The notes under the pieces are model-generated. The model had not been told where the DNA came from and searched no databases. It worked only from the letters and a program-made list of their open reading frames with translations. Below are positions 38,271 to 39,773 of a stretch of DNA of 64,000 bases, piece by piece. Position numbers and translations under genes: made by a program. The DNA comes from Eledone cirrhosa (taxonomy: Eukaryota): positions 38,626,001-38,690,000 of the forward strand of contig OZ024752.1 of NCBI GenBank assembly GCA_964016885.1, written 5' to 3'. Every line of letters begins with the position of its first letter. Position 1 is the stretch's first letter.

Positions 38271-38363
38271 TTATATATATATATATATAATACATTATGA
38301 AGAGAGAAGAAACATTAGATATAATTAATAATAAGATATACCATACCTAAACTCCTTCTTTAC

Positions 38364-38456
38364 TCCTCGACTATGTAGTTTCGTGGCATATTATACAAAA
38401 ACACTACATCACAGAGATATAGAAATTTTGTGAGGTCTGCCGACTTATCAAGAGGA
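38364..38456 (-). ncRNA. Type I hammerhead ribozyme (U3-A8 variant), left arm of FB2
   Basis: Minus strand: UCCUC-UUGAUAA-GUCGGCA...UGCCAC-GAAA-CUACAUAG-UC-GAGGA. Confidence 0.75.
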
Positions 38457-39050
38457 TACCTCATTAAGAGTTTCAAAACACGTCCATAGGACGCGAGATA
38501 GAATTCCGAAAGACGGAGGGGGAGTCAATCACGTGATACAACGGTCAAGAAACAGAGCTAAGCCTCTTATAACCATGAAAAAAATACCACGAAGGCGGAG
38601 GGGGTACTGATATCAAAGCCGTAGAAGAGGTGGCTAAGGTGGTGAGAAGTATGAGTAATGATAGCTTTCCAGCAGTCACTACACTTCAATGGTTACTCGA
38701 CCAAAGGGAGTTGTAAACAATATATAGAAACACACAGATGAAGAGAGAAGAAACATTAGATATAATTAATAATAAGATATATCATATTGTTTACAACTCC
38801 CTTTGGTCGAGTAACCTTTGAAGTGTAGTGACTGCTGGAAAGCTATCATTACTCATACTTCTCACCACCTTAGCCACCTCTTCTACGGCTTTGATATAAG
38901 TACCCCCTCCGCCTTCGTGGTATTTTTTTCATGGTTATAAGAGGCTTAGCTCCGTTTCTTGACCGTTGTATCACGTGATTGACTCCCCCTCCGCCTTTCG
39001 GAATTCTATCTCGCGTCCTATGGACGTGTTTTGAAACTCTTAATGAGGTA

Positions 39051-39143
39051 TCCTCTTGATAAGTCGGCAGACCTCACAAAATTTCTATATCTCTGTGATG
39101 TAGTGTTTTGGCATAATATGCCACGAAACTACGTAGTCGAGGA
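39051..39143 (+). ncRNA. Type I hammerhead ribozyme (U3-A8 variant), right arm of FB2
   Basis: Stem I UCCUC/GAGGA, core UUGAUAA (39056-39062), stem II GU(C)GGCA/UGCCAC, GAAA (39125-39128), palindromic stem III CUACGUAG, predicted GUC cleavage after 39138. Confidence 0.8.
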
Positions 39144-39377
39144 GTAAAGAAGGGGTTTAGGTATGGTATATCTTATTATTAATTATATCTAATGTTTCTT
39201 CTCTCTTCATAATGTATTATATAGCTCTGATACTGAATCAATCTAATCCATTCGGATTATTTTGTCCCAATTATTCATAGAGCAACATCGGTTGAGGTTG
39301 GCACCACTAATTCAAAGATATATGTGGATATATTCATGTATATGTATGTGTCTGCATGTATCTGTGTGTTTCTATAT

Positions 39378-39429
<52 letters not shown>

Positions 39430-39773
39430 GACTGCTGGAAAGCTATCATTAATCATACTTCTCGCCACCTTAGACACCTCTTCTACGGCTTTGATATAAG
39501 TACCCCCTCCGCCTTCGTGGTATTTTTTTCATGGTTATAAGAGGCTTAGCTCTGTTTCTTGAGCGCTGTATCACGTGATTGACTCCCCCTCCGCCTTTCG
39601 GGATTCTATCTCGCATCCTACGGGTGTGTTTTGAAACTCTAAACTCTAAAATCTAAGGTAGGAATCCAACGAATATATATATAGTAATAATAATAAAATT
39701 GAAGACTAAAATCCAAAGAGGGCTCGATAAGGAAAATATATATCAAATATATAAGAACCGTAGAGCAAATATT

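Follow-up and report, generated by a model that had tools for sequence, protein, structure and literature searches.

We describe a head-to-head fold-back, here referred to as FB2, that is most likely the non-coding relic of a Penelope-like element (PLE), composed of two pLTRs that each carry a promoter-like head, a candidate type I hammerhead and an intron-like tail. On balance, we regard FB2 as probably the terminal repeat of a (TA)n-targeting PLE that was inserted with template jumps and an inversion. The arrangement itself is already known for PLEs, and FB2 would be one more relic, unannotated so far, in a known class. It is of modest value and may offer a short, young (about 1% per arm) and fully readable record of PLE insertion junctions, a step that is described as still undefined (PMC8557442).

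The window, i.e., the whole stretch of 64,000 nt that was analyzed, consists of animal-type repeat-rich DNA with microsatellites, satellites and short interspersed repeats. The two arms of FB2 (38284-38723 on the minus strand and 38784-39223 on the plus strand) are 440 nt each, align without gaps, are oriented head to head and are ~98% identical. They differ by eight mismatches (five transitions and three transversions, one CpG-type change included) and by no indels. Positions within the arm are numbered E1 to E440 along the right arm, plus strand. The coordinates of FB2 given in a preliminary description of this DNA all hold, and its parts are as follows.

38272..38289, no strand: left (TA)9 tract, the probable target site, overlapping the outer end of the left arm
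38284..38723, minus strand: left arm, pLTR-like (head, candidate hammerhead, tail), with its 3' end directed outward into TA
38717..38739, minus strand: copy of motif M, an exact 23-nt inverted match to 39360-39382, with a 7-nt overlap with the left arm and a 2-nt overlap with T
38738..38786, minus strand: T, a mini partial-tandem copy of the arm tail (about 379-427) without the last 13 nt, with a 3-nt overlap where the right arm begins
38784..39223, plus strand: right arm, pLTR-like, with start and TA-ending 3' end as in the left arm
39224..39359, plus strand: X, occurring once in the window and grading into a degenerate TG/TA run; it could be element, older copy or host flank
39360..39382, plus strand: motif M, source or twin of the spacer piece
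39382..39425, no strand: (TA)22 tract
39427..39643, plus strand: third copy, arm positions 44-260, about 5% diverged, with its 3' end cut at the junction with the next fold-back

Both arms share a common start and a common TA-ending end (position 440), located 85 nt past the predicted hammerhead cut site. TA repeats surround the structure, with (TA)9 on the left, TATATA where the right arm ends and (TA)22 after M, placing FB2 in the type of (TA)n site into which members of the Hydra and Naiad clades insert. The spacer between the arms had been described as not unique, and both of its pieces indeed have copies in the window. Its 60 nt are fully accounted for by T and M, which overlap each other by 2 nt. 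T reproduces 38297-38340 exactly at 38738-38781 (44 nt at an offset of 441) and can be followed over 49 nt, up to 38786, with one mismatch (blastn E 4e-18); it copies E384-427 exactly, or E379-427 when the mismatch is counted. The 22-mer of M occurs exactly twice in the window, at 39360-39381 (plus strand) and 38718-38739 (minus strand), and 7 nt of the full 23-nt match (38717-38739 versus 39360-39382) fall within the left arm. The overlaps at the spacer junctions thus amount to 7 nt (left arm/M), 2 nt (M/T) and 3 nt (T/right arm). Both pieces are copied in sense polarity, which, together with these overlaps, supports the template jumping that was proposed earlier. A self-search of 38200-39700 revealed that neither the arm nor X nor M has further copies in the window. 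Exact 25-mer scanning of GTDB (0 hits) and a plasmid search (no match) yielded no outside copies of FB2, both in prokaryotic sets that are not informative on the source genome. Long palindromes are prone to artefacts, and many are present in the window. Nevertheless, a fold-back created during sequencing or assembly is extremely improbable, as the arms are separated by eight substitutions without indels, with a CpG-type change among them, and the spacer is a composite with three junctions.

Read on the minus strand, the left half of FB2 consists, in order, of T, M, E1-E440 and (TA)9, and the right half, on the plus strand, of E1-E440, X, M, (TA)22 and the third copy (E44-E260). The third copy, initially placed at 39427-39641, is present and its limits are refined to 39427-39643 (217 bp, 94% identity to both arms, E about 1e-94). 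It begins at arm position 44, after (TA)22, and ends at the equivalent of 39043, 8 nt short of hammerhead stem I, so that it has no hammerhead. Between M and this copy lie 45 nt in place of the 37 nt of head expected from a continuous copy. The offset of 592 from 38784 to 39376 that had been noted is correct, but it applies to a motif of 6-7 nt only, the third copy being offset from the right arm by 600. Over the 217 nt, private changes number 11 in the third copy, 2 in the left arm and 1 in the right arm (binomial p = 7e-4), a pattern that gene conversion between the arms could weaken or partly mimic. With 11 private changes versus 3 in both arms, the third copy is unlikely to derive from the template of the arms, which argues against the single product of greater than unit length, third copy included, that the preliminary description had envisaged. 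By eye, CpG is kept in the third copy at some of the differences and in the arms at others, as expected for separate source lineages.

The following sequence elements were identified in the arms.

38364..38456, minus strand: candidate type I hammerhead, left allele, by descriptor and folding
39051..39143, plus strand: candidate type I hammerhead, right allele, by descriptor and folding
38904..38995, plus strand: promoter-like motifs, presumably GC boxes (38904 and 38986) and an E-box hexamer (38972)
39161..39224, plus strand: candidate 64-nt spliceosomal intron with an AG/GTATGG donor, a CTAAT branch-like motif, a 14-nt pyrimidine run and the first downstream AG at 39223-24

In the right allele, stem I pairs 39051-55 with 39139-43 (5 bp) and is followed by a U3-A8 core at 39056-62 (TTGATAA at 39056), a stem II of 62 nt (39063-39124) that folds into 19 bp, GAAA at 39125-28, a palindromic stem III at 39129-36 (CTACGTAG) and GUC, with cleavage predicted after 39138. 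A type I descriptor in which the 3-8 pair may covary and stem II may reach 80 nt has four matches on both strands of the 64 kb, namely in both FB2 arms, at 625-679 (a canonical motif) and at one further, weak site. Dinucleotide shuffles of the 598-nt unit matched this descriptor in 4 of 20000 cases, in 1 of 20000 with a stem I of at least 5 bp and in 0 of 20000 when a full stem III palindrome was required in addition; these counts, like those for the splice pattern given below, are optimistic, because both patterns were written after the motifs had been seen. Pairing within stem II, on the other hand, was not demanded by the descriptor and therefore provides a stronger and more independent test: the 19-bp fold was matched by 0 of 2000 shuffles for each allele. 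Folding z-scores for the whole motif are weak (-1.4 to -2.2).

The active fold of the left allele lies close to the minimum energy (-23.3 versus -23.4 kcal/mol), and its stem III palindrome is broken by a CpG-type change. The right allele retains a 10-nt palindrome (stem III self-duplex -12.9 kcal/mol), with an active fold 2.2 kcal/mol above the minimum. Each arm is thus slightly damaged, at a different place. At 39110-39112, two nearby substitutions in the right arm have rendered a small local hairpin perfect; it competes with stem II, and the two changes look like quasi-palindrome template-switch changes. Taken together, each arm carries a candidate type I hammerhead with a short palindromic stem III. 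As modeled, the motif is likely to be a self-cutting RNA, whose activity would probably be weak and exerted as a dimer through the stem III palindrome. U3-A8 cores, palindromic stems III, cleavage as dimers and opposite-strand hammerhead pairs 100-700 bp apart have all been described for PLEs (PMC4209133; PMC6765202).

Rfam detects no hammerhead in the window at gathering thresholds (0 matches at that level), and among the 67 weak matches obtained in 37500-41100 up to E 5, all hairpin or microsatellite look-alikes, none is a hammerhead. As a U3-A8 core with a 62-nt stem II is missed by Rfam and by short-stem descriptors, such hammerheads may be under-counted in TA-rich animal genomes. Lünse et al. 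reportedly treat small hammerhead variants of PLEs, and variants with a long stem II may be described there. Two other candidates were discarded. A non-canonical 9-nt core at 39094 with the GAAA half, found with a stem II limit of 60 nt, was rejected in favor of the U3-A8 core lying 38 nt upstream, with which stem I reaches 5 bp and stem II 19 bp, and a descriptor match at 36984 (minus strand), with a 4-bp stem I and no palindrome, was treated as chance. Elsewhere in the window, 617-687 (plus strand) holds a candidate type I hammerhead with a canonical core, an 8-bp stem I, a 36-nt stem II hairpin and a palindromic stem III. Its AUA lies at a cut predicted after 679, 132 nt before a TA tract. 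This candidate, also missed by Rfam, probably marks the 3' end of another PLE family.

The head region of the arm is not depleted in CpG (o/e 0.95 versus 0.38 in the left flank), and we take the GC-box and E-box motifs within it to have a putative promoter function. Downstream of the hammerhead, the combination of donor, branch motif and pyrimidine run, a pattern drawn up post hoc, recurred in 7 of 20000 shuffles. It was found in 0 of 1447 control tiles, a figure that indicates only a low background, since tile edges miss real sites too. We infer that 39161-39224 may be an intron; its acceptor is uncertain, because the AG coincides with the arm end. No Pfam match to a reverse transcriptase (RT) or GIY-YIG domain was obtained in any of 127 frames at E 0.05 (three frames chosen from the right arm and X included, and one of the 125 listed frames, a satellite, left out). 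The longest open stretches in 38784-39381 are below 70 aa, and the arm is non-coding. Without an RT/GIY-YIG open reading frame, FB2 is not an autonomous PLE and is read here as a terminal fragment or a non-autonomous derivative, whose clade within the PLEs cannot be assigned, as FB2 holds no open reading frame.

Strand-specific RNA motifs of this kind bear on whether FB2 is a fold-back DNA transposon (MITE), with TIRs of 440 bp and TA as its duplicated target, which we consider very improbable. Long and nearly perfect TIRs (440 bp, 98%) with TA on both sides would suit such an element. However, the arms carry these motifs, the spacer is composed of the arm's own end and copies of flank-side DNA, a direct third copy truncated at both ends adjoins, and a TA duplication would be indistinguishable inside TA tracts.

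A PLE had already been suggested in the preliminary description, and the GUC hammerhead, the inverted and partial-tandem layout and the TA targets bear this out. PLEs are known to form partial tandems with an adjacent inverted, 5'-truncated copy and to target (TA)n (Craig et al., PMC8557442), and the same pLTR layout, a direct partial tandem plus an adjacent inverted copy, is found in FB2. Arkhipova et al. (PMC3846280) described two pLTRs in direct and one in inverted orientation, with head-to-head junctions, microhomology, self-priming and capture of host DNA between the pLTRs. Moreover, Frangieh et al. (PMC11167929) reported that a PLE protein cleaves AT-rich DNA on both strands and extends them, that reverse transcription starts at two sites downstream of the hammerhead and that cleavage is not required in vitro. 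In FB2, the outer copies run 13 nt past the inner partial copy T, whereas a typical PLE tail is 30-40 nt; T behaves like a mini upstream pLTR without its last 13 nt. This extra end of 13 nt, the absence of RT/GIY-YIG, the Rfam-negative hammerhead and the lack of likeness to cephalopod PLE 3' ends argue against the PLE reading. With regard to the last point, no likeness was seen by eye between FB2 and the 3' ends of Naiad_Obim, Naiad_Ovul, Naiad_Omin and Hydra-1_Obim, as given in the supplement of PMC8557442. Three short FB2 motifs are absent from the text of the Craig 2021 supplement, in which line breaks could hide matches. The 3' ends of Naiad_Obim and Naiad_Ovul show, by eye, a hammerhead half-core with, shortly after it, a site resembling a donor some 75 nt from the end, a spacing similar to that of the donor in the FB2 tail (PMC8557442).

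In the mechanism that we propose, a PLE RT-endonuclease, acting in trans, would nick a TA tract, and cDNA synthesis would begin about 85 nt downstream of the hammerhead cut site. After 440 nt had been copied, the cDNA would jump onto M at a 7-nt overlap, or read through if M lies natively upstream. A second jump at a 2-nt overlap, back to the 3' start region of the element, would then add 44-49 nt and create the mini partial tandem. Folding back of the cDNA at a 3-nt overlap, or a second priming event, would yield the inverted arm, the other side being joined through TA, and the third copy would be an older or separately templated copy of the FB2 family. Both the origin by reverse transcription and the order of these steps are what we infer from the arrangement.

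The preliminary description also raised a retrozyme-like circle and inferred a monomer of about 590 nt with a 441-nt deletion variant. The latter is rejected as a template, for a 441-nt monomer would lack E428 onward, and E428-440 are present in the left arm without any difference from the right arm; 441 is therefore a jump distance and not a unit length. Nor is a circle arising at the FB2 locus itself supported: with one hammerhead per strand and a third copy that stops 8 nt before stem I and lacks a hammerhead, no unit-length RNA can be cut out here. The working definition of active non-LTR retrozymes calls for a minimum of two consecutive units whose hammerheads are complete (bioRxiv 10.64898/2026.07.22.740005; PMC7229834). 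FB2 does not contain two or more consecutive head-to-tail units that each have a complete type I hammerhead, and without such an array it cannot be filed as a retrozyme. A circular RNA behind FB2 is possible, and it is not needed to explain the arrangement.

A related explanation places the template at a master locus elsewhere, as a 592-nt tandem or circular retrozyme-like RNA (X-M-head-hammerhead-intron). Right arm, X and M together (38784-39381) measure exactly 592 + 6 nt and would represent one round plus 6 nt, the left arm being a second priming event that jumped. This explanation, which we hold to be unlikely, gains from that exact length, from the order of M followed by the head, seen twice (in the left arm and in M-(TA)22-third copy, with 45 nt for 37), from the sense polarity of both spacer pieces and from an AG after E440, where an acceptor is expected. 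In addition, circular templates have been proposed for PLEs (PMC4209133), and consensus lengths of vertebrate and invertebrate retrozymes span 51-972 bp (bioRxiv 10.64898/2026.07.22.740005). Against it, the 441-nt monomer is impossible as a template, one hammerhead per strand falls short of the retrozyme definition, the third copy is too diverged, and fold-back copying accounts for the common start and end of the arms without a circle. By eye, moreover, M is embedded in a degenerate TG/TA run such as is seen at other edges of host microsatellites, overlaps of 7 nt are readily found, and X-M-(TA)-third copy can be taken for a single older copy with TA in place of the first 31-37 bases of its head. 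A 592-nt unit fits 39224-39381, and so does host flank with a templated insertion. Even a true period of 592 would leave a circle indistinguishable from a linear tandem RNA, as both give identical DNA.

Decidedly unlikely, in our view, is a further version in which a non-autonomous 592-nt PLE with promoter, intron and long-stem U3-A8 hammerhead circulates as circular RNA, so that FB2 would record reverse transcription once round plus 6 nt and, on the other side, a jump onto intron RNA. The latter jump is suggested because T stops 2-7 nt from the predicted donor site. If true, FB2 would preserve in the genome a footprint of the circular intermediate that has been proposed, and would hint at how PLEs keep their introns, and if a 592-nt array and its circle exist, the idea of circular templates for PLEs becomes directly testable.

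FB2 might also have arisen by local DNA repair, without any RT step: an older PLE relic (right arm-X-M-TA-third copy) would later have been inverted and duplicated from the left TA tract by fold-back or microhomology-mediated break repair, with T and M as templated insertions from nearby DNA. A source for every spacer piece indeed lies within about 620 bp, with overlaps of 2-7 nt, and 7-nt matches are common, as 54 of 433 arm 7-mers recur in 946 nt of flank and 12 of 433 in 39224-39390. The two arms also resemble each other far more than either resembles the third copy, the next fold-back shows a local duplication of 7 nt at its junction and an outer inverted repeat made of DNA resembling flank, and mechanisms of fold-back and templated insertion exist (PMC3907307, PMC11724301). 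We nonetheless judge such a repair origin to be rather unlikely, since the left arm ends exactly at the TA-ending position 440 of the element and both inserts are in sense orientation (a 1 in 4 chance). Within 3 kb there are, in addition, at least three head-to-head fold-backs flanked by TA, two of them with central hammerhead-core motifs, which points to an element-driven process.

Self-inverted repeats near FB2 are located at 36915-37029, 39777-39909, 40152-40328 and 40887-40999. In agreement with the PLE reading, the neighboring fold-backs follow the plan of FB2: all four relaxed hammerhead-core matches in the window (no stem I required) are central to two TA-flanked fold-backs other than FB2 (matched by 30 and 31 of 20000 shuffles). 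Two copies of one fold-back family, at 36840-37064 and 40865-41120, each comprise one short and one long arm that end in TA. The copy at 40.9 kb has a central hammerhead core without the 5' strand of stem I, and the strand opposite to the core bears a stretch resembling an intron (GTAAGT ... T-run, TAG). A nested fold-back at 39644-39968 has 66-nt inner arms (one mismatch) and a U4A hammerhead-like core at its center. Its left arm is longer by a tail of 93 nt, and TA together with flank-like DNA forms part of an exact outer inverted repeat of 36 nt. The third copy of FB2 is cut at the left junction of this fold-back, where the 7-nt local duplication is found. A fold-back at 40042-40430 has a 47-nt spacer and arms that run out into degenerate microsatellite, and neither descriptor matched a hammerhead in it. 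Also in the window are a tRNA-like SINE head beside the left TA tract (38207-38269, with copies at 11703-11758 (100%) and 22643-22690), a single C2H2 zinc-finger match at 36202-36372 (minus strand; E 7e-5, which misses the curated cut-off) within a tandem duplication of 339 bp, and a near-perfect palindrome of 70 nt (91%) at 60349-60418 with no TA tract adjoining. No paper on the FB2 family was found in a limited library of literature on octopus Penelope elements and hammerheads, cephalopod hammerheads and octopus palindromes.

Compared with known systems, FB2 shares with the animal non-LTR retrozymes its non-coding nature, low GC content, a type I hammerhead (a candidate in FB2) and perhaps a PLE-derived unit of a few hundred nt, whereas it differs from them in having inverted arms and no head-to-tail hammerhead array (PMC7229834; bioRxiv 10.64898/2026.07.22.740005). 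With the minimal hammerheads described for Schistosoma mansoni PLEs it has in common the U3-A8 covariation, a helix I of 4-5 bp, the G10.1-C11.1 pair, a palindromic 15.2-16.2 region and opposite-strand pairs 100-700 bp apart; helix II of FB2, however, has 19 bp with internal loops instead of 7-8 bp, and its 8-nt stem III is not minimal (PMC4209133). Penelope solo-pLTRs of Adineta vaga likewise display a head-to-head inverted pLTR, microhomology at the 5' junction and unrelated DNA between pLTRs. Target duplications of 8-10 bp often flank the insert in that species, while none is discernible within TA at FB2, and in contrast to the two direct pLTRs and the single inverted one there, the third repeat of FB2 is diverged and truncated at both ends (PMC3846280).

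The EN+ PLEs that target (TA)n (Hydra and Naiad, with Neptune for microsatellite bias) resemble FB2 in their partial tandem, inverted 5'-truncated copy and 3' ends in (TA)n, and an intron signal, putative in FB2, lies within the repeat in both (PMC8557442). As in the Hydra clade, a type I hammerhead, predicted in the case of FB2, is located near the 3' end, at 85 nt in FB2 and about 35-150 nt in five entries measured by hand (PMC8557442). The Hydra entries in File S2 combine C3-G8 with short stems, in contrast to U3-A8 and a 62-nt stem II in FB2, and two spike-moss PLE-X entries likewise have long stem II regions (PMC8557442). Naiads are reported there without canonical hammerheads, whereas the FB2 arms carry hammerhead candidates (PMC8557442). 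In Penelope of D. virilis the intron ends 5' of the hammerhead, while the intron-like stretch of FB2 follows it (PMC8557442; PMC4209133). Promoter, hammerhead and intron united in one terminal repeat constitute the plan of a pLTR, and the FB2 arm, with its putative counterparts of all three, is built in the same way (PMC8557442; PMC4209133).
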